A DNA stretch of 64,000 nt, from the IMG/VR virus record IMGVR_UViG_3300037608_000032, positions 1-64,000 of that record; one strand, 5' to 3'. The stretch is from a virus. This document shows, piece after piece, positions 3,703-42,163 of this stretch (position 1 is the first letter of the stretch; each line of letters begins with the position of its first letter). The notes beneath the pieces are model-generated. The model did not search any database. It saw nothing but the letters and a program-made list of their open reading frames with translations, and was not told where the DNA came from. A program made the translations under genes and the position numbers.

Positions 3703-3764
3703 CTACACCCGACGAAGAGCCCCTAACCGGTAGCTGGTTAGGGGCAAGTGGAATCCGGTTACTT

Positions 3765-4895: not shown

Positions 4896-4920
4896 CGGGG
4901 CTCCTTGCTGGGCGGGCGGG

Positions 4921-4978
4921 TCAAGAAGCAACTGCTCTTGATGTCATAAGTATAACTTGAATCACGTTAGACTGTCAA
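4921..4978 (-). promoter_or_regulatory. early sigma70-type promoter with operator and 5' hairpin
   Basis: TTGACA-18-TATACT; TAAC-gtgattcaa-GTTA; TCAAGAGC-AGTT-GCTTCTTGA hairpin. Confidence 0.85.
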
Positions 4979-5207
4979 CGGGTATCCAAGAAGATTCTCG
5001 CACCTGTAGCGATTTATTTTCATCGACCGGGAGCACCTCCGACACCGGGAAGGCCGTCCCAGCGTACCCAGGACGAAGCGCCTGCGAGTCGAGGAACACG
5101 CTGTAGACCTCGGGCTCGCGGTAGTCGGGCGGGGCCATGCGGACGTAGTTGATCGAGCCGGGCTGGCCCTTGGCTTGAACTCGGGCGCCGGGGAGAAGAT
5201 GAGACAC
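4962..5207 (-). CDS. hypothetical protein (81 aa)
   Basis: AGGAGG RBS before GTG. Confidence 0.7.
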   Translation of the reverse strand: MSHLLPGARVQAKGQPGSINYVRMAPPDYREPEVYSVFLDSQALRPGYAGTAFPVSEVLPVDENKSLQVRESSWIPVDSLT

Positions 5208-5215
5208 AGGACCTC

Positions 5216-22966: not shown

Positions 22967-23648
22967 CCCTCGGTACCTCGACAAGGCCACGGACGCCGAA
23001 TGGCCGACGCGCATGCCACCTTCCGTCTTGGGGGACTGGCAGGCCTTGACGAAGTGGCTGGCAGGGGTGTCTCCCGAGTACCGGGCCCGCGTCGTGTCCC
23101 TCTGCATCGAGCTGGATCTGGAGGCCGGGCGGGTGGCCTACCGGGACGCCATGGCGGCCGGAGAGCGGTTCAAGGCCGACCTGATCAAGCGCAACGGGCC
23201 GGCCGTGGTGGCCAGCGCCAAGGTCCTGTCGGCCTCGGTCGGTCGGGCCATGGACGCGCTGACGACGTGGCGGGCGGTGGGCTTGGCGGCGGTCCGGGCG
23301 ACGGAACAGGCCCGGCAAGACCTGGAGGTCTTCAGGTGGGTCCGGGCGTCGTTCGTGAGAGTTGCTCGCACATGGAGCGATGTATCTGCGGCGAAGGGGG
23401 AGGGGATGACGAGGGACGACACGCCTGCGGGTGTGGCCAAGGCCCGTCGGGAGTTCGAGGACGAACAGCGCCGGAAGCGCGGGGCTGGCGCGAAGGATGA
23501 CGATGTGCTCGTGAGCACAGCGCCGGTGAAGGACGCCTACATTGCCGAAGAGACGGCCAACCAGGCGAAGCGAGACCGGGCAGACGCCGAAGACCGGGCG
23601 AAGGCTACTACGAAGTCCACGCCAAAGGGCGGACTGTTCGGAGGTTGA
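22959..23648 (+). CDS. hypothetical protein
   Basis: Helical ORF in operon; ends GGLFGG. Confidence 0.7.
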   Translation: MPDPRYLDKATDAEWPTRMPPSVLGDWQALTKWLAGVSPEYRARVVSLCIELDLEAGRVAYRDAMAAGERFKADLIKRNGPAVVASAKVLSASVGRAMDALTTWRAVGLAAVRATEQARQDLEVFRWVRASFVRVARTWSDVSAAKGEGMTRDDTPAGVAKARREFEDEQRRKRGAGAKDDDVLVSTAPVKDAYIAEETANQAKRDRADAEDRAKATTKSTPKGGLFGG

Positions 23649-23650
23649 CC

Positions 23651-24103
23651 GTGCTTCACCTGACTTGCTGGGGGCCGAAGGGCCTGAGATATCTAGGACA
23701 TGGACGTGCCTTGACCATCATGGCCCTGCCCCGCCAGTGGGAGGTTGGTGACGGCTCGGTGACGGTGCTTGTCCCTTCCGGCGATGTGATCCGCATGATG
23801 CGGGCAGCGCTGGACGCGCGCAAGAACCCGCTCTTCGCTGGACGCGAGCCCTTGAACCGCTATCAGGCGGTCTACGAGGCTGGGCTTCAAGGTGTGCTGG
23901 ACGCGGGGCAGCTCGCACCCGGAAAACTGATGGCCCGGACAGGGCTGCACAGGTTCCCGGTCGCTGATGGAGACTCCCTGATGTGCGCGTGTCAACCGGG
24001 GGAAGAGTGCCACCGTCAGTGGGCCGCTCGGTTCTTGATGCGTGCCGGTTGGCGGGTTTCGTTGGACGGACAGGAGTTGACTTCATGTGCAAGCAACTTG
24101 TGA
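23651..24103 (+). CDS. DUF488-like protein
   Basis: LMCACQPGEECHR motif; GGAGG RBS. Confidence 0.6.
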   Translation: MLHLTCWGPKGLRYLGHGRALTIMALPRQWEVGDGSVTVLVPSGDVIRMMRAALDARKNPLFAGREPLNRYQAVYEAGLQGVLDAGQLAPGKLMARTGLHRFPVADGDSLMCACQPGEECHRQWAARFLMRAGWRVSLDGQELTSCASNL

Positions 24104-24164
24104 GACTTCCGGTGTTCGTGGCTTTCGGGGTGTGCCTGCTGATGGTCGCTTGGTGGAGAACGAG

Positions 24165-25643
24165 GTGAGAGACATCGTGGCGGTGGACCTGTTCGCGGGA
24201 GGCGGGGGTGCTTCGGAGGGGATGCGCAGGGCTGGGGGGAACGTCGTGATCGCGGTCGACCATGACCCGGCTTCGATCTTGATGCACACGGCGAACCATC
24301 CAGAAACGATCCACTTTGAGAAGTCGGTCTTTGAGGTTTCGCCGAATGTCGTAGGCCGGAAGGTGGACCTGCTCTGGGCATCGCCGGACTGCACGCATTT
24401 TCCCAGAGCGAAGGGCGGCAAGCCTCGAAAGAAGGAGATTCGGGATCTCGCATGGGTCGTTGTCGAGTGGGCGCAAGCCGTCCGACCGGACGTAATTTGC
24501 ATGGAAAATGTGCAGGAATTCCTGACGTGGGGCCCCCTGGACGAAGAGGGCCAGCCCATCAAAAAGCAGGCAGGCGAGACGTTTCAGGTCTTCGTGGCTC
24601 GGCTTCGGTTGCTCGGGTATCGCGTAGACTGGCGCGTCCTGTGCGCGGCTGACTACGGAGCCCCCACTTCGAGACGACGGCTCTTTCTGGTTGCTCGGGG
24701 CGATGGAGAGCCCGTGGTCTGGCCGGAGCCGACGCACGGTAAGGGACGCGAGTCCTACCGGACGGCTGCGGAGTGCATTGACTGGTCTTTGCTGTGCCCC
24801 TCGATATTCGAGCGCAAGAAGCCGCTGGCTGAGGCGACACAACGCCGCATCGCCGAAGGGGTGCGACGGTACGTCCTGGAGGCGGCTCACCCGTTCCTGG
24901 TACGGTACAATTCTGAGCATCCTGGACAACGACCGCGCGTGGAGTCGGTAGACGACGTATTCCCGACGGTGACGACCGAGAACCGGTTCGGACTGGTCAT
25001 ACCTTCCCTGAACCATCACCGGGGGAAGTCGGTGGGCAGAAAGATCGATGCACCTGCACCGACTATTACCGCGTCGTTCGGTGGGCACCTGGGGCTTGTG
25101 TCGGCGTTCCTGGCGAAGCACTACGGCGGACCGAACGGGTATCAGAATCGGGGTCTCGCAGTAGACGAGCCTCTCGGTACGGTGACGGCCGTTGACCATC
25201 ATGGCCTCGTCGCAGTCTTCCTCGACAAGCTCCACGGGTCTGCACTGGCAGGCCAACCCATCGACATTCCAGCACTGACGGTGACGACTGGCGGTGGACG
25301 TGGTGGTGGTCATGCTGCGTTGGTCGCGGTGTTCCTGACGAAGTTCTACGGGCAGGGCTCGCAGGCTCAATGCGTAGGGGCGCCGCTCGATACCATCGTC
25401 TCGAAGGACCGCTTCGGGCTCGTGTTCGTGACGCTGGACGGTGAGTCCTACGTCCTGGCTGACATCGGCATGCGGATGCTCCAGCCCCGCGAGTTGGCCC
25501 GTGCTCAAGGGTTCCAGGATTCCTACATTCTGACCGGGACGAAGGCTCAACAGGTAGCCAGGATCGGGAACTCGGTGCCGCCCGCTGTGGTGGTTGCCGT
25601 GGTTCGTGCCCAATTCGGGAGACGGACGAAGAAGGGGACGTAG
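24165..25643 (+). CDS. DNA cytosine-5 methyltransferase
   Basis: DLFAGGGG, WASPDC, ENV, DYGAPTSRRRLF, RELARAQGF, IGNSV. Confidence 0.95.
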   Translation: MRDIVAVDLFAGGGGASEGMRRAGGNVVIAVDHDPASILMHTANHPETIHFEKSVFEVSPNVVGRKVDLLWASPDCTHFPRAKGGKPRKKEIRDLAWVVVEWAQAVRPDVICMENVQEFLTWGPLDEEGQPIKKQAGETFQVFVARLRLLGYRVDWRVLCAADYGAPTSRRRLFLVARGDGEPVVWPEPTHGKGRESYRTAAECIDWSLLCPSIFERKKPLAEATQRRIAEGVRRYVLEAAHPFLVRYNSEHPGQRPRVESVDDVFPTVTTENRFGLVIPSLNHHRGKSVGRKIDAPAPTITASFGGHLGLVSAFLAKHYGGPNGYQNRGLAVDEPLGTVTAVDHHGLVAVFLDKLHGSALAGQPIDIPALTVTTGGGRGGGHAALVAVFLTKFYGQGSQAQCVGAPLDTIVSKDRFGLVFVTLDGESYVLADIGMRMLQPRELARAQGFQDSYILTGTKAQQVARIGNSVPPAVVVAVVRAQFGRRTKKGT

Positions 25644-25681
25644 GGGCTACTACGTCAGCGAACCTTCACCAAGGGAAGCTG

Positions 25682-25882
25682 ATGGGACAAGGAGCGATTG
25701 CCGCGTTGTTGTTGCTGGGCATGGAACCGACAGAAGCCGAGATGTTCCATGCCCTCGGGGACAAGCAGGAGACTTTCCTGAACGGCTGGACCATCCGAAG
25801 GTGCATGGACTGCGGGAAGCCTGTTGCAGGTGGTCCTACTCGATGCGTTCTCTGTGCTGACATTGCTGGGGGTGAGGGGTGA
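25682..25882 (+). CDS. small zinc-finger protein
   Basis: CMDC..CVLC; GGCTACTAC upstream. Confidence 0.65.
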   Translation: MGQGAIAALLLLGMEPTEAEMFHALGDKQETFLNGWTIRRCMDCGKPVAGGPTRCVLCADIAGGEG

Positions 25883-26385
25883 AAGCTCTCACGCTCTGGC
25901 CTGAGTGGCTGTTCGCTATCCTGTACCTCGGGAAGCGGATCGAGAACAGGCCTCGGTCTCCGAAGTGGTACGGGCTTCAACCGGGAGACTGGTTCGCCCT
26001 GCACGCGGGGGTCAACAGGCCGACGCTTCAGCGGATCTCCGACGTCGGGGACATGGCGCTGAGGGCCGGAGTGCGAGGGATGACCTTCAAGGCCGACGGG
26101 AGTATCAAGTACGAGGGGCAGGTGCTCTCGCGTGAGACGTGCCCCTTGGGCGTCATCCCGGCGATGGCCCGTCTCGGTTCTGCGTGCCTCGGGTTCGCTC
26201 GCCCATGGGGCGTCGAAGACCAGTGGCAGTGGTCGCTTGACGAGGTGCGGGTGCTCCCGGAGCCGGTCTCATGCAAGGGCCATCAAGGCGGGTGGTTCGT
26301 GCCTGATGAAGTAGAGGCTCGCATCCGCAAGCAACTTCCGAGCCTGCCAGGGCTCCACGGCGAGCAAGGGGGCTTCTTCGGGTAG
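25879..26385 (+). CDS. ASCH-domain protein
   Basis: KALTLWPEW..GKRIENR, ALHAG, PVSCKGHQGGW. Confidence 0.85.
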   Translation: MKALTLWPEWLFAILYLGKRIENRPRSPKWYGLQPGDWFALHAGVNRPTLQRISDVGDMALRAGVRGMTFKADGSIKYEGQVLSRETCPLGVIPAMARLGSACLGFARPWGVEDQWQWSLDEVRVLPEPVSCKGHQGGWFVPDEVEARIRKQLPSLPGLHGEQGGFFG

Positions 26386-26483
26386 GTACGCACCGCCACC
26401 CGTGAAAAGTCCTTGCAGGTGTGGTATCTTTTCGGAGCAGGGACGAAAGACGGTACGAAAGTACGAGCCCCCGAAGGATCAGG

Positions 26484-27257
26484 ATGACCGAGATCGAACC
26501 ACAATCGAAGCAACTCGCGAAAAGAGGCGGTGAAACCTCCAACGCGCATCGGGCCTTCCTTTTGTGGCTCATGCAGGACCCTGGAAAGAAAGGGGCACGG
26601 ACGAATACCGCGACCGCCAAGGCAGTAAAGAAGACCGAAGGAGCAGTTAGAAAGTGGCGTATCGCGTTCGAGTGGGACGAACGGGCGCGGGTTCTTGGGC
26701 TCGGTGCTGATGCGATGGCCGCGCGGGTCTATGCCGAGAAGTACCCTGGCAAGGGGCCGGTGGAAGTCTCGCGGATAATCCACTTGATGAGCGTGCAATT
26801 CGTGAGGGAGGACGGGACGGTGCCGGAACCTGTGCCGCAACCTCCACCCGAGCCAGCGATACCGCTTGAACGGCAACGAGACGCCAAGGCAGAAGACGCG
26901 CGGAACGTCGCGAAACGACGGATGACCCTGATTCTGGACGCCGCAGAAGGTACGCTGGCCAAGGCGCTCCAAGACGGCAAGGCCAGGGTCAACATCGCGG
27001 ACCTGGCCATCGTTCAGAAGCTTCGGCGTGACCTACAAGACGGACCGACCGCAGCCCAGATCAAGGACCCGCTGGCGACGTCGGTTCGAGTCGAGGAAGC
27101 CGTGAAGCGTGGAGCTGACTGGAACGAGGCTCTACAGGAAGACCTGGAGGAGATGGGGTTGATACTCGGGATTCTCCGGACTTCTACCGAGGTATCGAAC
27201 GTCCTACCCTTTCCTGGCGGCCGGCCGGTGCTGGAGAAGGTGGCAAGCGGGGAGTAG
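26484..27257 (+). CDS. putative terminase small subunit (HTH + coiled coil)
   Basis: AFLLWL..RTNTATAKAVKKTEGAVRKWRIAFEWDERA HTH pattern seen in TerS proteins; promoter-like GTGAAA-17-TATCTT upstream. Confidence 0.55.
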   Translation: MTEIEPQSKQLAKRGGETSNAHRAFLLWLMQDPGKKGARTNTATAKAVKKTEGAVRKWRIAFEWDERARVLGLGADAMAARVYAEKYPGKGPVEVSRIIHLMSVQFVREDGTVPEPVPQPPPEPAIPLERQRDAKAEDARNVAKRRMTLILDAAEGTLAKALQDGKARVNIADLAIVQKLRRDLQDGPTAAQIKDPLATSVRVEEAVKRGADWNEALQEDLEEMGLILGILRTSTEVSNVLPFPGGRPVLEKVASGE

Positions 27258-27296
27258 GGGCTACTACTTCGGTGAACCCAACCCCAGGAGTGGAGC

Positions 27297-27569
27297 ATGA
27301 GAACCACAGAACGGGATAGAAATCTATTCGGCGCGGCGTTCCTCGATGACGTCATTGACGTCATTGAGTACATCGCCGACAACTTCGACCCGGGCGAAGT
27401 GTTCGAGCCGGAGACCCTCAAGGAGTGGGTCCGTGATACCTTTTCTCCTGACGAGGTCTTCGGCGGGCGCAAGGTGGATGATTGGGTCCGCGACAGCCGC
27501 AACCCCGATGACGTGTTTTCTACGTCTCAGCTTGAGGAATGGGCTGAGGCCGACGGCTACACGAAGTAG
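27297..27569 (+). CDS. small acidic protein with three ~19-aa repeats
   Basis: PGEVF..LKEWV / PDEVF..VDDWV / PDDVF..LEEWA. Confidence 0.75.
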   Translation: MRTTERDRNLFGAAFLDDVIDVIEYIADNFDPGEVFEPETLKEWVRDTFSPDEVFGGRKVDDWVRDSRNPDDVFSTSQLEEWAEADGYTK

Positions 27570-27615
27570 CTTGCAGGCGTTACCACTTATTCCACCTTCG
27601 ACTCTGGAGGCCTTC

Positions 27616-28242
27616 ATGGGCCAGGCACGATGGGATCTCCTGAACGCCCTTGCTTACCAGCTTGGAGCGGTCCGCTACCTCGAAATAGGCGTCCAGTCTG
27701 GCAACTGCTTCTCACGAGTGGAGTGCCCCGAGAAGATCGGGGTTGACCCAGCGGGCGGGTGCGCGACCGTCAGGGCTACGTCAGACGCCTACTTCAAGAG
27801 CTTGCCTCCGGGGTTCACCTTCGATCTCGTCTTCGTGGACGGGCTCCATCACCGGGAGCAGGTCTGCCGAGACATCGTCAATGCCTGGGAGCACCTGACG
27901 CCGGGCGGGGCCATCCTGGTTCACGACTGCGACCCGCCGACGGAGCATTCTGGTAGGCGGGGCCTGTGCGGGGGCATCTGGTGCGGGGACGTGTGGCGCG
28001 GGTGGATGGACGCGAGACACCAACTCGGGCCCGAAGCCTGGATGGGCGTTGTCGAGACGGACCTCGGATGCGGGCTCGTCTTGCCCGGTGGTGCCGTCAG
28101 GTCGTCGCCGGTGCCGTGGTCCAAGGAAGAAACCGACCGGGCCGGGTGGGATTTCTTCGTGGCGCATCGCCGGGAGTGGCTGAACCTCGTCTCGGTGGAT
28201 GAATTCAGATGGCTCGTGTCGAGACTCGCGAGGATTCGCTGA
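27616..28242 (+). CDS. class I SAM-dependent methyltransferase (Methyltransf_24-like)
   Basis: YLEIGVQSG, FDLVFVDGLH, GGAILVHD. Confidence 0.88.
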   Translation: MGQARWDLLNALAYQLGAVRYLEIGVQSGNCFSRVECPEKIGVDPAGGCATVRATSDAYFKSLPPGFTFDLVFVDGLHHREQVCRDIVNAWEHLTPGGAILVHDCDPPTEHSGRRGLCGGIWCGDVWRGWMDARHQLGPEAWMGVVETDLGCGLVLPGGAVRSSPVPWSKEETDRAGWDFFVAHRREWLNLVSVDEFRWLVSRLARIR

Positions 28243-28769
28243 TGCATGTCGAGATCCTGGACTTTCTACGTCGTGCCCGCGACGAAGCCGAAGTACCAGC
28301 GTCCCTCGCGGGTCTGTCGGTTGTCGAGTTCGGGAGCTACATCATCAACGGCTCACCGCGAGAAGTCTTTACAGGTGCGGGGACTTATATAGGGGTGGAC
28401 TGGCGGGCCGGGCCAGGGGTGGACGTGGTCTCGCTGGCTCACGACGTCGCGGTTGACAGGGCGGACATCGTCCTGTGCTGCCAGGTCTTCGAGCATGATC
28501 CGCACTGGGAGCGGACCGTCAGGAAGGCGTGCGAGATGATACGAGCGGGAGGCTGGCTGTTCTTCACATGGGCCGGGCCTGGGTATCAGGAACACGAGTT
28601 GGCGACGGCCCCGTCTGTCGATGGGGGGAGTCGATACTACCGGAACCTGCCCACGGAGGACGTGGTGGAAGGGGTCCTCAAGGTTCTACCCGACGCCTTG
28701 GTCGTCGCGGGATACCAACGGGGCACGCTGGATGCGTGCTTGTGGGCGTGGTGGCGGCCGGAGTTCTGA
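28242..28769 (+). CDS. class I SAM-dependent methyltransferase
   Basis: VVEFGS..NGS, YIGVD..GPGVDVV, DIVLCCQVFEH. Confidence 0.85.
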   Translation: MHVEILDFLRRARDEAEVPASLAGLSVVEFGSYIINGSPREVFTGAGTYIGVDWRAGPGVDVVSLAHDVAVDRADIVLCCQVFEHDPHWERTVRKACEMIRAGGWLFFTWAGPGYQEHELATAPSVDGGSRYYRNLPTEDVVEGVLKVLPDALVVAGYQRGTLDACLWAWWRPEF

Positions 28770-28818
28770 TCTCTCCGGTGATGTCCCGTTATACTGGCGG
28801 ATGAAAGGAGGGTGTTGA

Positions 28819-29421
28819 ATGCCCCGTGCGAAGAAGAAGACCGACCCCGTCAAGGAAGCCCTTGCTCAAGCCGCGCCTGTTTGGCGGCTGGCGAAGATTG
28901 CCGAGCTACATCAGGACCCGACGAACGCCAGGAAGCACGGGGACAGGAACCGTGAAGTAGTCCGGGCTTCATTGGAGACCTTCGGGCAGGTCGAGAACCT
29001 CGTAGTCGAGCGGGGCACCGGAAAGGTGCTCGGTGGCAACTGCCGGCTTGACGAGTTGATCGCCCTCGGCCGTGACGAGGTGATGATCGCCGAAGTGGAT
29101 GTTCACGGACCGGCGGCGACGAAGCTGGCACTGGTCCTGAATCGGTCTGCGGAGCTGGCCGAGTGGGACCCCGTTGGGCTGGCCGACGTGGTGCGGGAGC
29201 TTCAAGGGAGCTTCGACGGGTTGGCGGACATCGGGTGGGATCCGAAGGAGCTTGAGAAGATCGTCGGCAGGCAGGAGGCCCCGATAGTCACTGGGAACGC
29301 TCCGGTAACGGACCTTGAGCAGCGGTTCGACATCGTCGTGGAGTGCGGCGATTACAAGGAGCAGGAGGCTCTACTGGCTCGACTACTGACGGAAGGTGTG
29401 AAATGCCGACCGATCATGTAG
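28819..29421 (+). CDS. ParB-like protein (phage DNA-modification-associated type)
   Basis: DPTNARKH, SLETFGQ, LGGNCR, LNRSAELAEWD; C-terminal IVVEC..EQEALL..L..EG.KC. Confidence 0.85.
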   Translation: MPRAKKKTDPVKEALAQAAPVWRLAKIAELHQDPTNARKHGDRNREVVRASLETFGQVENLVVERGTGKVLGGNCRLDELIALGRDEVMIAEVDVHGPAATKLALVLNRSAELAEWDPVGLADVVRELQGSFDGLADIGWDPKELEKIVGRQEAPIVTGNAPVTDLEQRFDIVVECGDYKEQEALLARLLTEGVKCRPIM

Positions 29422-30491
29422 TCCTTGAAGTGCAGGTGGAGAGAACGCCCCGCGTGCTCCGGGTTGAATCCATGTTCGACGTTCCGGCTTCGGAGAAGTC
29501 CCGACTTGAACTCGACATCGGGATGCCGATTGAAGATCGGCCGTGGTCGGTTGGGCTGATCGTCGGGCCGTCAGGTGCGGGAAAGTCCACTGTAGGTGCA
29601 AGGATCTTTCAGCGACCGGTCAGTCTGGAGTGGTCAGGCTCGAAGGCGTTGGTGGATTCCTTCGACCAGCGGTTCACGATCCAGGACATCGCTGAAGCGC
29701 TCGCGTCGGTTGGCCTGTCTTCGATCCCTTCCTGGTTGCGGCCTTTCCGGGTGCTTTCGACGGGTGAGCAGTTCCGAGCCATGATGGCGCGGACGATTCT
29801 GGAGACCGATGGCCTGGTAGTCGTGGACGAGTTCACGTCGGTTGTTGACCGGCAAGTCGCACAGGTGGCGAGTCATGCCGTGCAGAAGTACGTTCGTAAA
29901 ACCGGGCGGCAGTTCGTGGCTATCGGGTGTCACTACGACGTGATCGACTGGCTCCAACCAGACTGGATCTACGAGCCCCATGTGAATCGCTTCAACTGGA
30001 GGTCACTTCAACGACACCCAGAATTGCAGCTCGAAATCCATAAAGTTCACGGGTCCGACTACTGGCCCTTGTTTGGGCGTTATCACTATATGAGCGGCGA
30101 ATTGCACAAGGCCGCCCGGTGTTTCGTGTTGACCCTGGACGGTCAACCTGTGGCGTTCAACGCCTACATGCACCAGGCCCATGCCCAGACGAAGAACATA
30201 AAGTTCGGGCATCGGTTGGTAGTGCTGCCCGATTATCAAGGGCTTGGCATTGGACCAAGGTTTGATGAGTGGCTGGGAGAATACCTGTATGCACGCGGGT
30301 TTCGATATCACAATCACACAGCTAATCCGGCCATGATTAGATATTATTCAAAGTCCGTCCGGTGGCGGGCATTGAATCAAACACTGGGAATAACCGGGAC
30401 AAGTGCCAACAAATCGTTGAAAATAAAAGCAAAGCTAATTCGTAGGCTGTCTCTTCGTTCGTTCGCATATTCGCCGAAGGTAACACAATGA
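29403..30491 (+). CDS. ABC ATPase-GNAT acyltransferase fusion
   Basis: GPSGAGKS, LSTGE, VVDEF, CHYD; then YHYM and RLVVLPDYQGLGIG (acyl-CoA motif A). Confidence 0.92.
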   Translation: MPTDHVVLEVQVERTPRVLRVESMFDVPASEKSRLELDIGMPIEDRPWSVGLIVGPSGAGKSTVGARIFQRPVSLEWSGSKALVDSFDQRFTIQDIAEALASVGLSSIPSWLRPFRVLSTGEQFRAMMARTILETDGLVVVDEFTSVVDRQVAQVASHAVQKYVRKTGRQFVAIGCHYDVIDWLQPDWIYEPHVNRFNWRSLQRHPELQLEIHKVHGSDYWPLFGRYHYMSGELHKAARCFVLTLDGQPVAFNAYMHQAHAQTKNIKFGHRLVVLPDYQGLGIGPRFDEWLGEYLYARGFRYHNHTANPAMIRYYSKSVRWRALNQTLGITGTSANKSLKIKAKLIRRLSLRSFAYSPKVTQ

Positions 30492-30835
30492 AAACCTTTG
30501 TATCAGGCAAGGTCCACGATGTCAGAGTCACCGACAAGCATATTCGATATGTCGGGTCCATCTCGCTATCCAGAAACCTGATTGCAGCGGCGGGCATGGA
30601 GCCCTACGAGCAGGTCCATGTCATCAACCTCAACAACGGCAACCGGTGGGTGACGTATATCCTGCCCGTGGACGAAGACGGCGTGTTCACCTTGAACGGC
30701 GGCGGGGCTCGCCTCGGTGAAATCGGGGATGTCTGCGTGCTGATTACCTATGCCGCGTCCGAGCACTTCGACGGAGCGAAGGTGGTGTTCTGCACGGCGA
30801 AGAACGAGATCGACCATGAAACCACCTATCCTTGA
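30488..30835 (+). CDS. panD: aspartate 1-decarboxylase (pyruvoyl-dependent)
   Basis: GKVH, YVG/SI self-cleavage site, NNGNRWVTY, LNGGGAR, GD. Confidence 0.92.
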   Translation: MKTFVSGKVHDVRVTDKHIRYVGSISLSRNLIAAAGMEPYEQVHVINLNNGNRWVTYILPVDEDGVFTLNGGGARLGEIGDVCVLITYAASEHFDGAKVVFCTAKNEIDHETTYP

Positions 30836-31511
30836 GATTGGCCGCTATCTGGTACCCGCCTATGCCGGGATGGTGCTCGCGGAGCAGGGTTTCCAGGTAG
30901 AAAAGTGGTTGTACCTGCAAGACCCTATTCAGGGGCTTCTTCACGGAGACGAGCTTTGGCGGTGGGTCAACGCGGGGAAGGTGCTCGTCAACCACGTAGC
31001 GGACGAAGTGCTAAACCTGTCGGTAGGAGCCTTCTCCGGCGTTGTCGAGAATCTCTCGGAGTCGTGGTGGTTGGCGCATGGCGTGGACCCTGATGAACAG
31101 GCGCGACGGCTTGACGTGCCCTGGGTCTCGTTTCGGCCACAAGTAGGTGAGCGGTCCTTCGACGTTATCGCTCAGGCGCAGGCGTGGGCCGGTGTAGCTC
31201 CCTGGGTGCCTTTCTACATTGGAGACACCTTGGGGGGCCTGTGGGTCGCCTACAAGCTCGTGTCCATGCTGGCGCTCGGGAAGACAGGCCGCGTGGTCAT
31301 CCGTCATGCCGATTGCTTGGCGAAGATGGTGGAAGGGGAGTTGACCCTTCCGAGGCCGTCGGGTCCAGTGCCATGGGATATCGAGGTCTATCGACTCGGG
31401 GAGCAAGGGGCCGAAGTCGAGTATCGGGGTAACATCGTAAAGGAGCCTCTACGGGATGACGCTTGGCGTCGGGAGCACCTGACAACAGTCAGCGGGCGGA
31501 TTGTCGTCTGA
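30816..31511 (+). CDS. minimal family III (CaiB/BaiF) CoA-transferase
   Basis: ILEIGRYLVPAYAGMVLAEQG..V.K, DP, NAGK, VVEN, FDVIAQA, catalytic IGD..GGL; only about 230 aa. Confidence 0.85.
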   Translation: MKPPILEIGRYLVPAYAGMVLAEQGFQVEKWLYLQDPIQGLLHGDELWRWVNAGKVLVNHVADEVLNLSVGAFSGVVENLSESWWLAHGVDPDEQARRLDVPWVSFRPQVGERSFDVIAQAQAWAGVAPWVPFYIGDTLGGLWVAYKLVSMLALGKTGRVVIRHADCLAKMVEGELTLPRPSGPVPWDIEVYRLGEQGAEVEYRGNIVKEPLRDDAWRREHLTTVSGRIVV

Positions 31512-32748
31512 CGCTTTCGTTCTGGGCGATCATGGTGCCCAGGGGGCCGGTCTCTTCCTCGATACGTGCTCGGAGTTCTGGTGAGATCCGCCAGAGCGAC
31601 AACTTGCCCGCACATGCAACGGGCTTCTTGAGTGCCACGGCGTAGGTAACGGGAAGACATACGGGACCTTCTGCCCACTCGCGATCCGTCGTAACTTGTT
31701 CAACGGGGACGCCTTCGCCGAGAATAACAACACCGATGATAGCGGACGTGGGTAGTAAGCCTATGCCGTCGGTGAGCTTCGGGTCGGCGTCTACGTCGAA
31801 AGACGCGGACGCATGGATGAAGACCCAGCGCGAGCCCTTGATGCCGAGTCCTGTGGATCGATTCTCCCAGGTCTTGCGACCCGAGACGAGCAACGAAGCC
31901 CAGGGCTGCTTGACAGACAGGGCACGAAGGTCTCCAGCCCATCCGTCGTCCGCCTCGGTGGGCATGTCCAACCCAACGACGGCCTTGATGGACTCCTTCC
32001 ACTTCACGAGGGGGTCGTCACGGAGGCGCAAGTACAGCGCCTTCACCCGGTCGTCAGACTGCGAGGCTTCCAGGCGACGGAGGCCCTCAAGGTGGGTGGC
32101 GTCGGCGAAGCCGTTGTGCTTCAGCCGTGCTGCACCCTGGTTCAGTTTCCCGATCCAGATCGAATCGGTCACGAAGGGGGACAAGATGCTTACAAGTGCG
32201 AGCACCTTTTCCTCTTGGACTTCGAGCAACGGCTCGCAGGACACCGATGTCCTGAATCCCTGGGAGTAGGCGTATTCGAGGGCCATCAAGCGCTCCTCGA
32301 AGCTGGGAGCGCCGGGCTCCCACCACTTGAGGATGACCGACGAAGACGACCCGATCGTGAAGCGGAACATGATTTTGGACTTGTACTGGGCAAGCTCGGT
32401 GCAGACCCGAGCTATCACGTCAAGGTGGGGCTTGGAGACTACCAGGACTTCGTTCCCGGCCTCAAGGAGGTTCTTCAACCCCTGGATAGTCCAGTTGGCC
32501 AGCGCCGGGGAGATATCGTGGGTGGTGGGATACATGACCGTGCCCTGGTAGCGGCGCTTTGTTTTTGCCATTCCCGGGGTGCTTGGATGTTCGTTGGACC
32601 ACTGACCGGGCTCACATCGCCGGAAGCGGTAGGCCATGGCTGATCCATAGCAATAGCAACAAGAATTTGAGCAGCCCCGCACGGTATTTACCGAGTTTGA
32701 GGCCCATTCTCTGGTTCCGGAAACAGCGATAGGTCTGGTTTCTTCCAT
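31489..32748 (-). CDS. radical SAM (SPL/DUF5131-like)-ASCH fusion
   Basis: GCSNSCCYCY, WEPGAPSFEERL, SCEPLL; C-terminal RALSVKQPWA..GRKTWENR..IHAS. Confidence 0.85.
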   Translation of the reverse strand: MEETRPIAVSGTREWASNSVNTVRGCSNSCCYCYGSAMAYRFRRCEPGQWSNEHPSTPGMAKTKRRYQGTVMYPTTHDISPALANWTIQGLKNLLEAGNEVLVVSKPHLDVIARVCTELAQYKSKIMFRFTIGSSSSVILKWWEPGAPSFEERLMALEYAYSQGFRTSVSCEPLLEVQEEKVLALVSILSPFVTDSIWIGKLNQGAARLKHNGFADATHLEGLRRLEASQSDDRVKALYLRLRDDPLVKWKESIKAVVGLDMPTEADDGWAGDLRALSVKQPWASLLVSGRKTWENRSTGLGIKGSRWVFIHASASFDVDADPKLTDGIGLLPTSAIIGVVILGEGVPVEQVTTDREWAEGPVCLPVTYAVALKKPVACAGKLSLWRISPELRARIEEETGPLGTMIAQNESVRRQSAR

Positions 32749-33290
32749 CCGCTTTTTCTTCCTTGTCCTACGTTATGACCGTTTATGTATTTTCGTGGTC
32801 TTTGATGCTCATCGTATTTTAGAAATGTAGATCCGCATCCACAGGCGCACGGAACGATCTCGTTGATCTTGGACTTCTTTCCTTTTCTCCAATGGCCGCC
32901 GTCGATGTACTTTCGTAGTCTTCCGGACTCATCGAACTTAAAAAAAGTAGCTCCGCAGCCACAAGCACATGAGACGAGTTCGTTAGGTTCGTCTGGAAGT
33001 TGACGCACCTTGCCGCTGTGTCGATGGTGAACCTTGTGCGCCCATATGCTGCTGACAATCTCGATGTTCTCTGGCCGGTTATCCGTTCGGTCTTCGTTCT
33101 TGTGATGCACAAGTTCGGTGGGGAGAATCTTTCTACCAAGGATCTGCTCTGCAACGATTCTGTGCTCGTAGGCGTACCCGTTGATGTGGGCGAGGTGATG
33201 GCCGTCTTCGACTTTGACCAGCACGTATCCGTTGCTTCCGACAAGACGTCCGCCTTTCCAGTTCGGGTTCTTCTCTCTTTTGAGGCCCAT
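32688..33290 (-). CDS. HNH endonuclease
   Basis: NPNWKGG, YEHRIVAE..VHHKNEDRTDNRPENI; two CACGCG repeats; AT-rich. Confidence 0.88.
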   Translation of the reverse strand: MGLKREKNPNWKGGRLVGSNGYVLVKVEDGHHLAHINGYAYEHRIVAEQILGRKILPTELVHHKNEDRTDNRPENIEIVSSIWAHKVHHRHSGKVRQLPDEPNELVSCACGCGATFFKFDESGRLRKYIDGGHWRKGKKSKINEIVPCACGCGSTFLKYDEHQRPRKYINGHNVGQGRKSGWKKPDLSLFPEPENGPQTR

Positions 33291-33366
33291 GGTTGACTCC
33301 TTGGTTGATGTGCATCTATGTGATAGCAGCATCTACCTATGGAATCAACAATAAAGTTGATGCGTG

Positions 33367-33564
33367 TTACTCGTTCCTCTTGAGTCTGACCTCAGCCAGA
33401 ATCTCGTCCGCCTCGACACGGGCCAGGCGCTTGGCCTCGCGCACCGTGTTGGCGACGTGGAAGATGGAGAGGGGCCAGAAGACCTGGCCGTCTTTAGACA
33501 TGGTGCCGGCCATCGCCATGGGGCGGCCGGTGGTGGTGCGTTCGACTTTGTAGACGTACTTCAT
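33367..33564 (-). CDS. hypothetical protein (65 aa)
   Basis: AAGGAG RBS. Confidence 0.7.
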   Translation of the reverse strand: MKYVYKVERTTTGRPMAMAGTMSKDGQVFWPLSIFHVANTVREAKRLARVEADEILAEVRLKRNE

Positions 33565-38342: not shown

Positions 38343-38583
38343 ACTGGCCCGTGAGATGACCCGCGCCGAATTCATGACCCAGGAGCGCAAGGCCTTCATG
38401 CGCTTCATGCGGGACGCGCCAGAGACGACGCTCGGATGGTCCGTGACCTACCGCTGCGACTGCGGCCACGTTGACCGGACGCCGTCCGACGCATGGAGTC
38501 ATGCCCAGGCCTGCGACGGGACCGGGACGAAGCCAGCGGGTCAACAGGTGCTCTTCGGAGACCCTTCCCCGGCGAATCAATGA
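38329..38583 (+). CDS. hypothetical protein
   Basis: CDCG..H..C; coupled to mom. Confidence 0.6.
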   Translation: MPMPELAREMTRAEFMTQERKAFMRFMRDAPETTLGWSVTYRCDCGHVDRTPSDAWSHAQACDGTGTKPAGQQVLFGDPSPANQ

Positions 38584-39467
38584 ATCAGCGTTGGCGAGAA
38601 CGACGCGAGAGCTACAGGCCAGCACAAGAGCCTATCGACCCGAGCAAGTACGGTGTCGAGTTGATCCGAGAACAAGACGCGAAGGCCTACGTTATTCGGC
38701 ATCATTACTCGGGGACCTACCCGGCGGCGCGTCTTCGGGTCGGTCTGTTTAGGTCTTTACCGTTCAACGCTCCCGCTTTGGTAGGCGTTGCCGTCTTCTC
38801 GGTCCCGATGGTAGGGGCCGTCATCTCGAAGTGGCTCGGAGTGGAGCCCGCCAAGGGAGTAGAGCTCGGGAGATTCGTGCTGAATGACGACGTGGAGGGG
38901 AACGGAGAAACGTGGTTTTTGGCTCGTGCTTTTCGTTTGCTGGCCCGTGAACTCCAGGAGGTTGAAGGTGTGGTCAGCATGTCAGACCCTGTTCAGCGAA
39001 GGTCGGCCTTTGGCGACGTGGTGACTCCTGGACATGTTGGGACGATCTACCAAGCGCTGAATGGAAGATTCGTCGGGAGGTCGAAACCGAAGAAGATGGT
39101 TCTTGACCAGGAGGGAAGAGCCCTGTCGGAACGTGCCTTGTCCAAGATACGAAATGACGAATGCGGGGCTCGATACGCCTACGATCAGCTTCTGGACTCT
39201 GGAGCTCCAAGACGGGAATTCGGGGAGACCGGGGAGCACTACATAGCCAGAGCGCTACGAGACGGTCCATTCGTCAGGGTCGCTCATCCCGGGAACATAG
39301 TCTATGTCTGGGCGACTGAACGGGCGAGCAAGATGACCGTTCAAGGCCTTCGGGACCCCATGAAGTACCTCAAGGCTCGAGATGCTGTAGTGTGCATGGA
39401 GCGAGAGGTCATCGCCAGGGTAGATTCACGCACCTGCAAGCAACTTGGACTCTTTCCGGCGATGTAG
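38580..39467 (+). CDS. mom: Mom-family (GNAT-fold) adenine-modification protein
   Basis: HHYS, LVGVAVF, ELGRFVL, NGETWFLARAF, VSMSDP, GHVGTIYQALN. Confidence 0.85.
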   Translation: MNQRWRERRESYRPAQEPIDPSKYGVELIREQDAKAYVIRHHYSGTYPAARLRVGLFRSLPFNAPALVGVAVFSVPMVGAVISKWLGVEPAKGVELGRFVLNDDVEGNGETWFLARAFRLLARELQEVEGVVSMSDPVQRRSAFGDVVTPGHVGTIYQALNGRFVGRSKPKKMVLDQEGRALSERALSKIRNDECGARYAYDQLLDSGAPRREFGETGEHYIARALRDGPFVRVAHPGNIVYVWATERASKMTVQGLRDPMKYLKARDAVVCMEREVIARVDSRTCKQLGLFPAM

Positions 39468-39481
39468 GGTATGCTCCCAGC

Positions 39482-41200
39482 ATGGATTCTGATCAAGCCC
39501 AGACCCGACTTCAAGAGCTCCACGCTGGCTCGTGTGGCTCTCTGCACCGGCGCTTCCCCTTGCTCGGGATGGCGCGAGCCCTGCACCACAACAAGCGCGG
39601 CCAGCCGATCACGTTCGCCGACAAGCCGTACCTGATTCCCCTCTACGCATGGATGGACGCGCTCCAAGAGGCCAGCTTTTGCAAGGCGACGTTGACGGGG
39701 ATCTCGGAGCTGTTCATTCAGAAGATCCTCCACGACGCAGGCTGGAAGAATCGGATCTGTGCCTACATCATGCCGCAGTATCAGACCTCCGAGCGGTTCG
39801 TCGGGGAGCGCATCGACCCCCTGCTGACCGACGTGCCGGCCTACGCCGGGCGGGTTCCGGGCGGGGAGTACGGGGCCAACGCGAAGACCCAGGGCTCACT
39901 GAAGCGCAAGCGGTTCGGGCCCCTTGGCGGCCTGCTGTTCCTCGGGAGCAACACGCCATCGGACTTCCTGGAGTTCAGCGCCGACACGGTGATTGTAGAC
40001 GAGTACGACGCCTGCGAGTTTGAGAACGTGGCGAAGGTCTGGGACCGGGTTCGGGAAAGTAGTTACCCGCAGGTGTTCAAGGTTTCCAATCCGTCCAGGC
40101 CGAAGGATGGCGTCAACAAGATATGGAAGGACGGCTCCCGCGCCAGGTGGTTTCATCGGTGCCCTGGGTGCGGAGAGCGCCAGCCGCTGGACTGGGAGGA
40201 GCACTTCGTCCGCAAGGCCGACGACGGGCGGTGGGTGCCGAGAGACGACGCTCGAGCCGGGGACCTGATGACCGGGGACCTCCGGCCAGTGTGCCGGCGG
40301 TGTCACCAGCCCTGGGAGCGCATCGCCGAGGGGTCTTGCTGGGTCGGGGAGTTCCCGCAAAAGCCAGCGGCCTTCCACATCTCGCGGTTGGACGTTCTGG
40401 CAACGACTCGCGAGCCCCAGCCCGTGCGCCGGTTCTACTCGGAGTGGTGCGCTGCTCAGGGCAACTCCGCGAAGCTCCGGGCGTTCTCCACGGGCGTGCT
40501 CGGGTGGCTCCGGGAAGAGTCGGGCTCGCGGATCTCCGTGGAGCTCCTCGAACGAGCCGAAGCCGGTCAAGAGCCCCTCGACTACACCGGCGGCGAAGCC
40601 TACAAGAAGTTGACCGTCGTGATGGGCGTTGATATCGGGACCTTGTTGCACGTCTCAATATCGGTCTTGGAGCGGGTCGAAGACCGGTACGTACGGAGGA
40701 GAGGACGACTGCTCTGCACGGTCAACACGAAGGACGAGATTTACAGGTTGCAGCGGGTCTTCAACGTCGGGACGATGTGCCTGGACGTCGGGCCCGAGAC
40801 TCGGCTCGTCAAGGAGATTCGGGACCACTTCCAGGAGTCGGGGGAGTGCGAGGTCTGGCTGTGCCGGTTCTCCCCGACGCCGAGGGTAGGGGAGGAAGCG
40901 TTTGGCCTTCGTGTCATGGAGCATGGATGGCAAGAACGAGTCGTCACGGCGGACCGGACCCAGCTACTCGATACGACCCTTGAGGAGTTGGCTTCAGGTG
41001 CAAGGACTTTACCGAGCGACTCGGGAACGGTGCTCGGGTTCCATGACCAGATGCGTGCGCCGGTCCGGGTGCTGGACGAAAAGGGGCAACGGTACATCTG
41101 GACCGAGGGGTCGGACCCGGACCACTTCCGGTTCGCAGATGCTTACGAGCGAGTTGCCCAGGAGATGCAGGACCGCGGAGGTGGGTTCTTCTCGGTGTGA
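39482..41200 (+). CDS. terL: terminase large subunit (lambda gpA-like)
   Basis: KATLTGISE, VIVDEYD, VSNP, CPGC..CRRC, MGVDIG, DHFRFA; near portal. Confidence 0.92.
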   Translation: MDSDQAQTRLQELHAGSCGSLHRRFPLLGMARALHHNKRGQPITFADKPYLIPLYAWMDALQEASFCKATLTGISELFIQKILHDAGWKNRICAYIMPQYQTSERFVGERIDPLLTDVPAYAGRVPGGEYGANAKTQGSLKRKRFGPLGGLLFLGSNTPSDFLEFSADTVIVDEYDACEFENVAKVWDRVRESSYPQVFKVSNPSRPKDGVNKIWKDGSRARWFHRCPGCGERQPLDWEEHFVRKADDGRWVPRDDARAGDLMTGDLRPVCRRCHQPWERIAEGSCWVGEFPQKPAAFHISRLDVLATTREPQPVRRFYSEWCAAQGNSAKLRAFSTGVLGWLREESGSRISVELLERAEAGQEPLDYTGGEAYKKLTVVMGVDIGTLLHVSISVLERVEDRYVRRRGRLLCTVNTKDEIYRLQRVFNVGTMCLDVGPETRLVKEIRDHFQESGECEVWLCRFSPTPRVGEEAFGLRVMEHGWQERVVTADRTQLLDTTLEELASGARTLPSDSGTVLGFHDQMRAPVRVLDEKGQRYIWTEGSDPDHFRFADAYERVAQEMQDRGGGFFSV

Positions 41201-41617: not shown

Positions 41618-42072
41618 TGTGAATAGCCGGAATACACCGGTGCGGTCTTGGCCGTGGGTGCAACGGCTGCCGTTGGAGCGACGGCGGCAACCGAAGCCAT
41701 TGGGGCGGACCCCAGCCGAGAGACGTAGTAGGTGGCTGCTCCAAGCAGGAAGATCATGAGCGGTTTTTGGGCCCACGAAACGAACGCCGTGAACATGCCC
41801 CAGCCGCGCTTGGACCGATCTTTTTCGTCGGCGTCCTTCTTGGCCACCATGTCGGAGTGGGTTTTCGCCGTAGCGCAAACCATGTCTACCCGTTTGAGAG
41901 CTTCGTCAACGCGTCCGGTCCCGAGGAGGATCGCGCTTTGCATGACATCGACAGCCCCACGGATCTCGGCTCTCAGGCTTGCTGATTCGGTGGCGTTGGT
42001 TCGGAGGAGTTCAAACATGGTCCGCAGGATCTCCTGCGTGGTTTCGTGGGCTGCCTGCTTCGGTTCGGCCAT
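41614..42072 (-). CDS. coiled-coil plus transmembrane protein
   Basis: AGGAGG RBS; hydrophobic PLMIFLLGAATYYV; oriented opposite to neighbours. Confidence 0.7.
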   Translation of the reverse strand: MAEPKQAAHETTQEILRTMFELLRTNATESASLRAEIRGAVDVMQSAILLGTGRVDEALKRVDMVCATAKTHSDMVAKKDADEKDRSKRGWGMFTAFVSWAQKPLMIFLLGAATYYVSRLGSAPMASVAAVAPTAAVAPTAKTAPVYSGYSQ

Positions 42073-42163
42073 AGAGCCTCCTGCTTCCAGGGTGACACGT
42101 CCGAGGCGCTATGACAAGAGGCTTGCAGGCGTGGTAGACTCCCCGAGTCTTCAAGGAGTTTCC

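Follow-up and report, generated by a model that had tools for sequence, protein, structure and literature searches.

A phage gene cassette of ParB-like, ABC-ATPase/GNAT, PanD and minimal CoA-transferase proteins as a candidate acyl-modification module with its own donor supply

Introduction

GNAT enzymes that acylate exocyclic base amines are known. Mom, an enzyme of GNAT fold, puts a glycyl group on the exocyclic N6 amine of adenine in double-stranded DNA (dsDNA) and protects it from restriction (PMC13219725), and TmcA/NAT10, in which a nucleoside triphosphatase (NTPase) is coupled to a GNAT domain, acylates an aromatic exocyclic nucleobase amine from acyl-coenzyme A (acyl-CoA) (PMC13219725; PMC8989533). 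Here we describe a cassette of four genes within a 64-kb stretch of phage DNA (positions 1 to 64,000 of the 75-kb IMG/VR virus record IMGVR_UViG_3300037608_000032; hereafter the window). The genes encode a ParB-like protein, a fusion of an ABC ATPase with a GNAT domain (ABC-GNAT), the pyruvoyl-type aspartate 1-decarboxylase PanD and a minimal family III CoA-transferase (mini-CoAT). Our preferred account, which we hold tentatively, is that they form a phage acyl-modification module with a beta-alanyl-CoA supply and a DNA base as acceptor.

The window ABC-GNAT differs from both of these enzymes. Mom uses Gly-tRNA as donor, has no ATPase and belongs to a different family, whereas the window ABC-GNAT keeps the acyl-CoA motif QxxGxG, and the window carries a separate Mom-like gene (phrog_1384) besides it. 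In Mu, mom sits after the tail-fibre genes, where ABC-GNAT lies in the phages phiE255 and Komp_PAO1_1. The ATPase of TmcA/NAT10 is helicase-like and not of the ABC type, its substrate is RNA and its donor acetyl-CoA. The likeness to the window protein is one of architecture only.

ParB-like partners of DNA-modifying enzymes are also on record. The thymine dioxygenase 5mYOX needs a small ParB homologue from the phage, in which no DNA-binding domain is obvious and which activates the enzyme on dsDNA (PMC13229309), and DpdB is a ParB-like ATPase in the insertion of 7-deazaguanine (preQ0) into DNA (PMC12839542). The partner enzymes in 5mYOX/ParB and DpdB/DpdA are a dioxygenase and a transglycosylase, whereas the partner in the window is a predicted acyltransferase. 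Likewise, the phages M6, ViI, PhiW-14 and PaMx11 are described as making thymidine hypermodifications from free amino acids through decarboxylases and an acetyltransferase that act on DNA (PMC8989533). Those pathways start at 5-hydroxymethyl-dU and employ a kinase, aGPT-Pplase transferases and pyridoxal phosphate (PLP)-dependent decarboxylases acting on DNA; in the window, by contrast, free aspartate would be the substrate of a pyruvoyl decarboxylase, with CoA as the carrier of the group.

With the family III enzymes CaiB, Frc/YfdW, SUGCT and Rv3272 the mini-CoAT has in common the large-domain fold (Z ~16, 173 residues) and an Asp (D169 of CaiB). These enzymes are, however, 350–430 aa long against 231 aa, and the context of the mini-CoAT implies omega-amino acid substrates. 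CaiB handles amine-bearing carboxylates (carnitine, gamma-butyrobetaine). The same mini-CoAT family (44–50% identity) is found in an actinobacterial gene triad, directly downstream of an amino-acid decarboxylase. There the decarboxylase is PLP-dependent and resembles glutamate decarboxylase (GAD), the acid is probably 4-aminobutyrate (GABA), and the arrangement looks like cellular metabolism and not like a phage system.

The phage module defined by phrog_11143 has the same two core genes as the window in the same order, with ParB upstream and ASCH neighbours recurrent. Most of its members have no donor genes, whereas the window adds PanD and mini-CoAT downstream and has a distinct GNAT signature. 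Iyer, Zhang, Burroughs and Aravind reportedly predicted DNA base acylation for such a module (NAR, 2013), so the ParB and ABC-GNAT pair is of a known, predicted kind; the extension by PanD and mini-CoAT is not in print as far as we found. In the searchable literature collection, which is incomplete, we found no report of a PanD/CoA-transferase cassette and no experimental report on the ParB and ABC-GNAT module.

Results

The original prediction, made from the sequence of the window, placed four overlapping genes at 28819–31511 and read them as one pathway. The overlaps between these co-directional genes are indeed 19, 4 (ATGA) and 20 nt, purine-rich stretches resembling Shine-Dalgarno sequences precede the starts of the first three, and no permease gene is among them. 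The same arrangement was found again in the Gordonia/Rhodococcus phage Jace (host Rhodococcus erythropolis RIA 643) and in IMG/VR, where 37 loci carry the mini-CoAT. Jace is the only deposited phage with a mini-CoAT, and its gp85–88 are ParB, an 'ATP binding protein', aspartate decarboxylase and a hypothetical protein. The 37 IMG/VR mini-CoAT loci represent, together with the window, 28 distinct versions. Because the gene order recurs in Jace and in these loci, it is more than chance. ABC-GNAT lies directly upstream of the mini-CoAT, or of PanD and mini-CoAT, in all 36 viral loci with room (L001–L038 in our numbering); PanD is directly upstream of the mini-CoAT in 30 of the 36, and in the other six, which have no PanD, ABC-GNAT abuts the mini-CoAT.

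PanD was identified by a score of 98.4 bits (cut-off 25; E 3.2e-28) against Pfam PF02261 and by matches in the PDB to 3plx (1.1e-15) and to M. tuberculosis PanD, 2c45 (4e-14). The Gly-Ser self-cleavage site from which the pyruvoyl group arises (G23-S24) and the active-site residues K8, H10, Y21, R53, T56, Y57 and N70 do not vary among the 17 sequences compared, one of which is E. coli PanD, and the alignment to 2c45 agrees with the invariant Gly-Ser site and active-site residues. The Gly-Ser cleavage site, the Lys, the Arg and the Thr-Tyr pair that had been read from the sequence are thus all kept, and their conservation supports the predicted step from aspartate to beta-alanine.

The mini-CoAT belongs to a family of short proteins. 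We found 71 homologues, all of 195–269 aa, of which 52 have been assigned to PF02515 by precomputed annotation. The family profile matches a formyl-CoA transferase at 7.7e-5; a direct search of PDB sequences with the window protein gave only a chance match to renalase (E 1.8). In the AlphaFold 2 (AF2) model (pLDDT 84.6), the top Foldseek matches are all family III enzymes (1.4e-7), and in the VIA superposition residues 1–174 lie on residues 11–216 of the matched chain, with Z 16.3 and a root-mean-square deviation of 2.4 over 173 residues; over the 350–430-aa enzymes the coverage is residues ~6–216. The small domain and the C-terminal return, which belong to the interlocked dimer of the ~400-aa enzymes, are missing. 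In solved family III enzymes the small domain contributes both to the active site and to the interlocking of the dimer. No longer or fused form of the mini-CoAT was found, which is weak evidence.

The claim that this shortened enzyme, of about 230 aa, retains the catalytic Asp held for the 231-aa protein, and the residue can be assigned to D137. D137, in a GDT motif, aligns with D169 of E. coli CaiB in a profile-sequence alignment by hhalign (weak, E 0.066), and range arithmetic from the structural superposition agrees with this correspondence. D169 is the residue mutated in PDB entry 1xvu, by the title of that entry. D137 and 30 other positions of the mini-CoAT are invariant in all 25 sequences compared. 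As another candidate for the catalytic Asp, D116 (SFD motif) was rejected; it aligns with an Asn of CaiB.

A scan of one genome per species returned 21 mini-CoAT loci, seven of them with ABC-GNAT nearby and three cut at PanD. At nine loci on actinobacterial chromosomes neither ParB nor ABC-GNAT nor PanD is found within 7 kb, and in eight of these nine the mini-CoAT lies between genes for a PLP decarboxylase and an aldehyde dehydrogenase. Glutamate decarboxylase was the best NCBIfam match of the decarboxylase in 4/4 tested (279–363 bits, cut-off 380), with a match to GadA at 5e-77, and aminobutyraldehyde dehydrogenase was the best match of the dehydrogenase in 8/8 tested, one of them above cut-off; most of these GAD-like and aminobutyraldehyde dehydrogenase-like scores lie below the curated cut-offs, and GABA is here a putative assignment. 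Both enzyme families yield GABA, which is the next homologue of beta-alanine. Since the flanking chromosomal genes are GABA-making by family name, the mini-CoAT family probably activates omega-amino acids. Moreover, this decarboxylase is a second, non-homologous one directly upstream of a mini-CoAT, and an omega-amino acid is therefore again implied as the substrate. This context is the strongest new support for the predicted step from beta-alanine to beta-alanyl-CoA, to which the adjacency of PanD and mini-CoAT in the viral loci adds. In Lentzea the triad adjoins IDO-like and cytochrome b5-like genes. An aromatic-amine pathway, considered on account of these neighbours, was dropped, the best scores of both the decarboxylases and the dehydrogenases being of GABA type; the chromosomal triad is a putative GABA-CoA pathway.

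The ABC-GNAT protein matches phrog_11143 at 6.3e-104 over positions 4–348 of 357. Both halves are recognised by Pfam (ABC_tran 28.4, cut-off 25; Acetyltransf_1 27.8, cut-off 20.7; Acetyltransf_7 28.5, cut-off 27), and SufC is matched at 1.6e-6. The ABC motifs are a Walker A GPSGAGKS, a signature LSTGE, a Walker B VVVDEF and an H-loop CHYD, at positions invariant among homologues. In the GNAT half, the acyl-CoA motif QGLGIG that had been noted is present at residues 279–284, with Q279, G280 and G282 invariant in 16/16 sequences, and many further GNAT residues are invariant over the same 16. The model of the GNAT domain (pLDDT 83.7) matches GNAT folds, the best of which include RimI, SSAT, GCN5 and phosphinothricin acetyltransferase. 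No PDB sequence was matched by the GNAT profile at 0.01; the matches beyond that threshold were weak, confined to motif A and had E 0.19–1.1. The protein has no match to phrog_1384, the Mom family, and TmcA/NAT10 is not among the matches listed from the PDB sequence search (best 60 of 98) or the fold search, although distant kinship is still possible.

Furthermore, the GNAT domain changes with the presence of the mini-CoAT. A tree was built from 129 ABC-GNAT rows, reduced to 106 by dropping high-scoring segment pairs shorter than 290 aa or with a stop or X and by merging sequences of at least 97% identity. In this tree 26 of the 28 proteins linked to a mini-CoAT fall in one clade of 37 (SH-aLRT 93), which also includes nine ABC-GNATs without a mini-CoAT; the label requires 8–10 changes on the tree, against ~25 when shuffled. 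Four positions, G269-[D/E]288-N304-Y315 (G269, D288, N304 and Y315 in the window), form a signature found in 25 of the 28 linked proteins and in none of 74 without a mini-CoAT, a comparison that leaves aside two rows labelled 'unk' and two labelled 'CoATnear'. It is absent from all nine members of the same clade that have no mini-CoAT. When phylogenetically independent pairs are compared, ~5 of 6 have N304 on the side of the mini-CoAT and no pair shows the opposite (p 0.06). This co-variation supports the claim that the CoA-transferase feeds the GNAT.

The DSSP string of the model places the signature residues of the GNAT domain on beta4, alpha3, beta5 and alpha4, elements that frame the acyl-CoA cleft in GNATs. 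The gained acidic residue and the Asn would fit a donor with a free amine. Four of five loci without PanD keep the signature (L021, L022, L034 and L035, with L030 as the exception), which fits a supply of beta-alanine by the host. In most of the cases checked, the next gene after a clade member without a mini-CoAT is terS-like, TerL or portal, no other donor gene being recognised, and such proteins therefore presumably use a host acyl-CoA as donor.

The first gene of the cassette encodes a protein with a ParB/Srx N-terminal ParB domain, recognised by PHROG and structure-profile matches. It matches phrog_620 at 1.8e-25, phrog_498 (ParB-methyltransferase) at 9.7e-23 and the N-terminus of PADLOC MTase_II at 2.6e-15, and so resembles ParB domains that are fused to DNA methyltransferases; it has no Pfam match. 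A profile of 14 relatives matches the structures of Noc, Spo0J and ParB at 2.2e-14 to 2.5e-9. The arginine box GERRxR, found in CTP-binding chromosomal ParB and Noc proteins, is not kept: the window has G-G-N-C-R and its relatives mostly A-G-N-H-T, where Noc has aGERRwRA. Of the 64 related loci with room, all but one (63) have a ParB gene upstream of ABC-GNAT, and 35 of the 39 mini-CoAT sources have a member of the ParB cluster.

ABC-GNAT itself is widespread, occurring in 83 deposited phage records from many hosts and in at least 568 IMG/VR stretches, far more commonly without a mini-CoAT than with one. From the best 80 of these at least 568 stretches, 79 of the closest loci were newly fetched and 77 had room; PanD and mini-CoAT were present in three of the 77, an ASCH gene was nearby in 18 and a formyltransferase gene in none. 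Since most close relatives of ABC-GNAT have neither PanD nor mini-CoAT, both genes count as an optional addition on the donor side. Of the single four-gene pathway originally proposed, ParB and ABC-GNAT therefore stand as the core module, and PanD and mini-CoAT do not belong to that core.

More distant ABC-GNATs pair with a Formyl_trans_N gene and form a well-supported separate branch. In the Mu-like phages phiE255 and Komp_PAO1_1 this pair comes just after the tail-fibre genes, and in the Gordonia phage NHagos the order is ParB, ABC-GNAT, formyltransferase and then directly terminase. Streptococcus phage 315.4 has ParB, ABC, GNAT and ASCH genes followed by terminase. As minor observations, a tiny open reading frame (ORF) precedes the ABC-GNAT/Formyl_trans_N pair in phiE255 and Komp_PAO1_1, recalling com-mom of Mu, and in streptococcal, lactococcal and Oenococcus phages ABC and GNAT match as two pieces annotated as separate genes.

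An ASCH-type gene follows the mini-CoAT, mostly in convergent orientation, in 13 of the 28 distinct loci. Pfam confirmed ASCH in four of six such genes tested, and also in the radical S-adenosylmethionine (SAM)-ASCH fusion of the window; in Jace the ASCH protein is gp89. The full-length fusion protein matches phrog_3193 and phrog_13321, and gives Pfam ASCH at 0.0014 and Radical_SAM at 0.0025, both below cut-off; the C-terminal ASCH half taken alone reaches 21.5 bits against a cut-off of 21.2. It is possibly a reader, an eraser or a tailoring partner, its membership in the system being uncertain. Its best NCBIfam matches, 'radical SAM mobile pair protein B' and the Rv2578c family, are far below cut-off, and a free-standing second phrog_3193 (ASCH-like) protein is encoded 3 kb upstream of the cassette.

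Two further arrangements of the cassette were seen. In one IMG/VR phage type (L007–L012 and L016), two ABC-GNAT paralogues flank PanD and mini-CoAT; the upstream copy has GENY at the signature positions, as in proteins linked to a mini-CoAT, and the downstream copy LANH, and the two may be writers with different donors. In addition, the mini-CoAT is present on six contigs of one metagenome-assembled genome (MAG) of the planctomycete family Gemmataceae and on a further contig from a Gemmata MAG, two of these matches being partial. The Gemmataceae ABC-GNATs L060 and L065 belong to a different clade and have the residues ESDR at the signature positions. These loci suggest either that PanD and CoAT were captured together independently or that related prophages are numerous.

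Discussion

We propose that the cassette would act as an acyl-modification module of the phage that makes its own donor; the chemical steps, the CoA donor and the DNA acceptor are inferred. PanD would convert L-aspartate to beta-alanine, and the mini-CoAT would transfer CoA to it from host acetyl- or succinyl-CoA, by way of an anhydride or thioester at Asp137, to give beta-alanyl-CoA. From this donor the GNAT domain would acylate the exocyclic amine of a base in the dsDNA of the phage. Cytosine N4 is a first guess, and adenine N6 may already be occupied by the Mom-like enzyme of the window. ATP-driven closure of the ABC domain, together with the ParB-like partner, would make the base accessible within duplex DNA. 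The expected product (+71.04 Da) would have a protonated amine, and could undergo rearrangement on the base like the glycyl intermediate of Mu Mom.

The two halves of this interpretation differ in strength, and the original prediction is therefore upheld in part. For the donor half, three independent lines, namely the gene order, the co-variation of the GNAT pocket and the GABA-enzyme-like flanks of chromosomal mini-CoATs, give support at the level of sequence. The DNA half is plausible but unproven and comes from context: a DNA acceptor is favoured by the near-obligate ParB partner, by the packaging-gene or Mom-like position and by the ASCH neighbours. In other phages ABC-GNAT adjoins terS and TerL. 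An ASCH protein, YqfB, is reported to be an N4-acylcytosine amidohydrolase that acts on N4-acetylcytidine (PMC6972931). A fuller version of the preferred account is that a ParB-assisted ABC-GNAT writes a cationic beta-alanyl mark or its N-(2-carbamoylethyl) isomer, with PanD and a single-domain omega-amino-acid CoA-transferase supplying the donor, with exchangeable donor cassettes (none, perhaps acetyl; formyltransferase; PanD and CoAT) and with ASCH proteins as readers or erasers. So much detail together is possible but doubtful.

Several observations weigh against the acylation of DNA from beta-alanyl-CoA. On the donor side, PanD reaches 79.3 bits on NCBIfam TIGR00223, under the equivalog cut-off of 106, and its sequence is that of a divergent member of the family. 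The window mini-CoAT has no Pfam match even at E 10, its alignment to CaiB is weak, and alpha-methylacyl-CoA racemases have the same fold and the same Asp. The catalytic competence of the modelled protein without the small domain is unproven. The signature is absent from three ABC-GNATs that are linked to a mini-CoAT, those of L030 and of the Gemmataceae pair L060/L065, and the independent-pairs test stays above 0.05, a level that six pairs cannot reach. The nine close relatives without a mini-CoAT indicate that the GNAT can presumably use host acyl-CoA.

On the acceptor side, the fold search with the GNAT domain yields generic GNATs only and nothing specific to TmcA or Mom, and in the window the cassette lies ~8 kb from the terminase gene, with leftward genes between, and not directly beside it. 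Acyl groups on N6-adenine are calculated to be unstable, and rearrangement is shown for Mom (PMC13219725). A simple N-acyl mark may for this reason not persist; by analogy the beta-alanyl group could rearrange, like the Mom product, to an isomer of the same mass. Literature searches, in the incomplete collection, yielded nothing on N-acyl bases in the DNA of phages, in line with the earlier statement that no base of this kind had been characterised. Finally, the function of the cassette is, for every member, a prediction from genes, and its DNA target is contextual.

The same beta-alanyl-CoA donor could serve a different acceptor, such as a DNA-bound or packaging protein, a host defence factor, an RNA such as tRNA (as with TmcA), or a small amine. 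Most GNATs act on proteins or small molecules, and the fold matches of this one include acetyltransferases of both kinds (RimI, SSAT, GCN5 and phosphinothricin acetyltransferase). ASCH domains are linked to RNA as well, YqfB acting on N4-acetylcytidine (PMC6972931), and N-acyl purines are calculated to be unstable on DNA (PMC13219725). We nevertheless consider a non-DNA acceptor unlikely, given the ParB partner in 63/64 loci, of the type fused to DNA methyltransferases, and the place of ABC-GNAT after the tail-fibre genes in Mu-like phages and beside terS/TerL in others. A phage-encoded PanD would, in addition, suggest a bulk use of beta-alanine, which would fit a stoichiometric DNA mark better than a catalytic mark on protein. 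It is also conceivable that the GNAT uses acetyl-CoA, as relatives without a mini-CoAT presumably do, with PanD boosting pantothenate and CoA synthesis and the mini-CoAT regenerating acetyl-CoA from other acyl-CoAs while much acetyl is being consumed. The textbook role of PanD is in pantothenate synthesis, only three of the 77 close ABC-GNAT loci have PanD and mini-CoAT, and the nine proteins of the same clade that lack a mini-CoAT are mostly followed directly by packaging genes, with no recognised donor gene. This possibility is nonetheless rather improbable. Pfam searches, in which positive controls worked, found no panB or panC anywhere in the 75-kb record, extending the earlier statement that neither gene is in the window. 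Moreover, a mere supply role does not predict that four GNAT positions change with the mini-CoAT (25/28 vs 0/74), PanD and mini-CoAT overlap and are adjacent in 30/36 loci, and chromosomal mini-CoATs stand between GABA-enzyme-like genes, outside acetate/CoA metabolism.

The mini-CoAT may alternatively not be specific for beta-alanine, acting instead on another acid, as a racemase-like enzyme or as a CoA-binding regulatory subunit, or the link between GNAT and PanD may be regulatory. Such roles would suit a protein that lacks the small domain and any Pfam match in a fold whose racemases have the same Asp, and six loci have the mini-CoAT without PanD. For a regulatory link there is a precedent in the E. 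coli GNAT PanM/PanZ, which reportedly binds acetyl-CoA and controls PanD maturation (PMC3398536). ABC-GNAT with mini-CoAT occurs without PanD, however, so that the GNAT is not there merely for PanD maturation; D137 and 30 further positions invariant over 25 sequences indicate a conserved active site, L021, L022, L034 and L035 keep the GNAT signature without PanD (L030 does not), which fits host beta-alanine, and the GABA-enzyme-like flanks point to omega-amino acids. We accordingly give these other roles little probability. Least of all do we expect ParB and ABC-GNAT to be a DNA-handling, packaging-initiation or anti-defence device with a regulatory or inactive GNAT, a very improbable reading although the pair often stands directly before terS and TerL, ParB and ABC ATPases have DNA-handling relatives (the Noc and Spo0J matches) and the ABC domain weakly matches the PADLOC defence component mad3 (8e-9). 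The GNAT acyl-CoA motif and many other GNAT residues are invariant over 16 sequences, genes of acyl metabolism recur alongside (CoAT and PanD, or Formyl_trans_N), and the Mu-like phages show the pair away from packaging genes.

If beta-alanyl transfer to a DNA base is correct, the cassette would represent a new chemical class of phage DNA hypermodification, an N-amino-acyl, positively charged base made from a CoA thioester, and would provide a first function for ParB and ABC-GNAT, which are among the most widespread untested phage gene pairs. The mini-CoAT would then define a new, minimal type of family III enzyme that activates omega-amino acids and could be useful for the synthesis of beta-alanyl-CoA or 4-aminobutyryl-CoA. 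The cultured phage Jace carries the whole cassette and makes the question directly testable, and the four-residue GNAT signature offers a mutagenesis handle on donor specificity. Such marks bear on restriction evasion, sequencing artefacts and DNA-labelling tools.

Genomic context of the cassette

The gene models and the other features mentioned above are collected in Table 1. For ABC-GNAT, the ORF spans 29343–30491, and the ATG at 29403 was chosen in agreement with the N-termini of homologues; in the same way, the ATG at 30816 was chosen within the mini-CoAT ORF (30750–31511). At its end the mini-CoAT gene overlaps the convergent radical SAM-ASCH gene by 23 nt.

Table 1. Positions of the cassette genes, of other genes in the window and of related loci (coordinates of related loci are those of the locus named).
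Feature	Coordinates	Strand	Length	Remarks
ParB-like gene	28819-29421	+	200 aa	N-terminal ParB domain and conserved C-terminal domain of ~45 aa
ABC-ATPase/GNAT fusion	29403-30491	+	362 aa	ABC ~29403-29990, GNAT ~29988-30491; presumed writer
PanD, pyruvoyl-type aspartate 1-decarboxylase	30488-30835	+	115 aa	predicted beta-alanine maker
Minimal family III CoA-transferase (mini-CoAT)	30816-31511	+	231 aa	large Rossmann-like domain and short C-terminal beta-meander
Radical SAM-ASCH fusion	31489-32748	-		convergent with mini-CoAT
C5-cytosine methylase	24087-25643
phrog_3193 (ASCH-like) protein	25879-26385	+		free-standing
Two SAM methyltransferases	27616-28769
HNH endonuclease	32688-33332	-
Mom-like gene	38493-39467	+		phrog_1384, 5.4e-22
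Large terminase	39392-41200
Portal	41732-44707
ABC-GNAT and Formyl_trans_N, phiE255 (L041)	3795-5688
ABC-GNAT and Formyl_trans_N, Komp_PAO1_1 (L046)	3310-5185
ParB, ABC-GNAT and formyltransferase, Gordonia phage NHagos (L042)	1-2473
ABC and GNAT parts, Streptococcus phage 315.4 (L040)	4001-5070
ABC-GNAT paralogues flanking PanD and mini-CoAT (L007)	878-1978, 3035-4138			upstream and downstream copy
Chromosomal triad loci, actinobacteria				L048, L051-L054, L056, L061, L063; e.g. L052 5589-9145
Gemmataceae/Gemmata MAG loci				L055, L057, L060, L064-L066, L068

Besides the cassette, the window holds a C5-cytosine methylase, two SAM methyltransferases and the Mom-like gene, which overlaps the start of the large terminase gene; the portal gene comes after the latter. 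The phage that carries the window may thus have several layers of DNA modification and, if the cassette marks DNA, it would add a further layer beside the methylases and the Mom-like gene. The Logan contigs that contain the stretch come from groundwater metagenomes only, three of which may be its source, with no RNA dataset among the matches listed. A scan of 23500–33500 found no promoter-like sites (2.4 expected) and eight terminator-like sites (7.0 expected), and is uninformative.

Part of the cassette had been described as richer in AT than its flanks, and this was confirmed: the GNAT half (30001–30491) has a GC content of 50.1%, and 53% at third codon positions (GC3), against 63.2% for the window, and the lowest-GC 350-bp interval in all 64 kb begins at 30201 (46.6%), within this half. 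The PanD gene has 56.3% GC. The HNH endonuclease gene, near the AT-rich GNAT half, is a second AT-rich insert, with 49.9% GC and a GC3 of 54%, and the lowest-GC 700-bp interval of the 64 kb begins at 32651.

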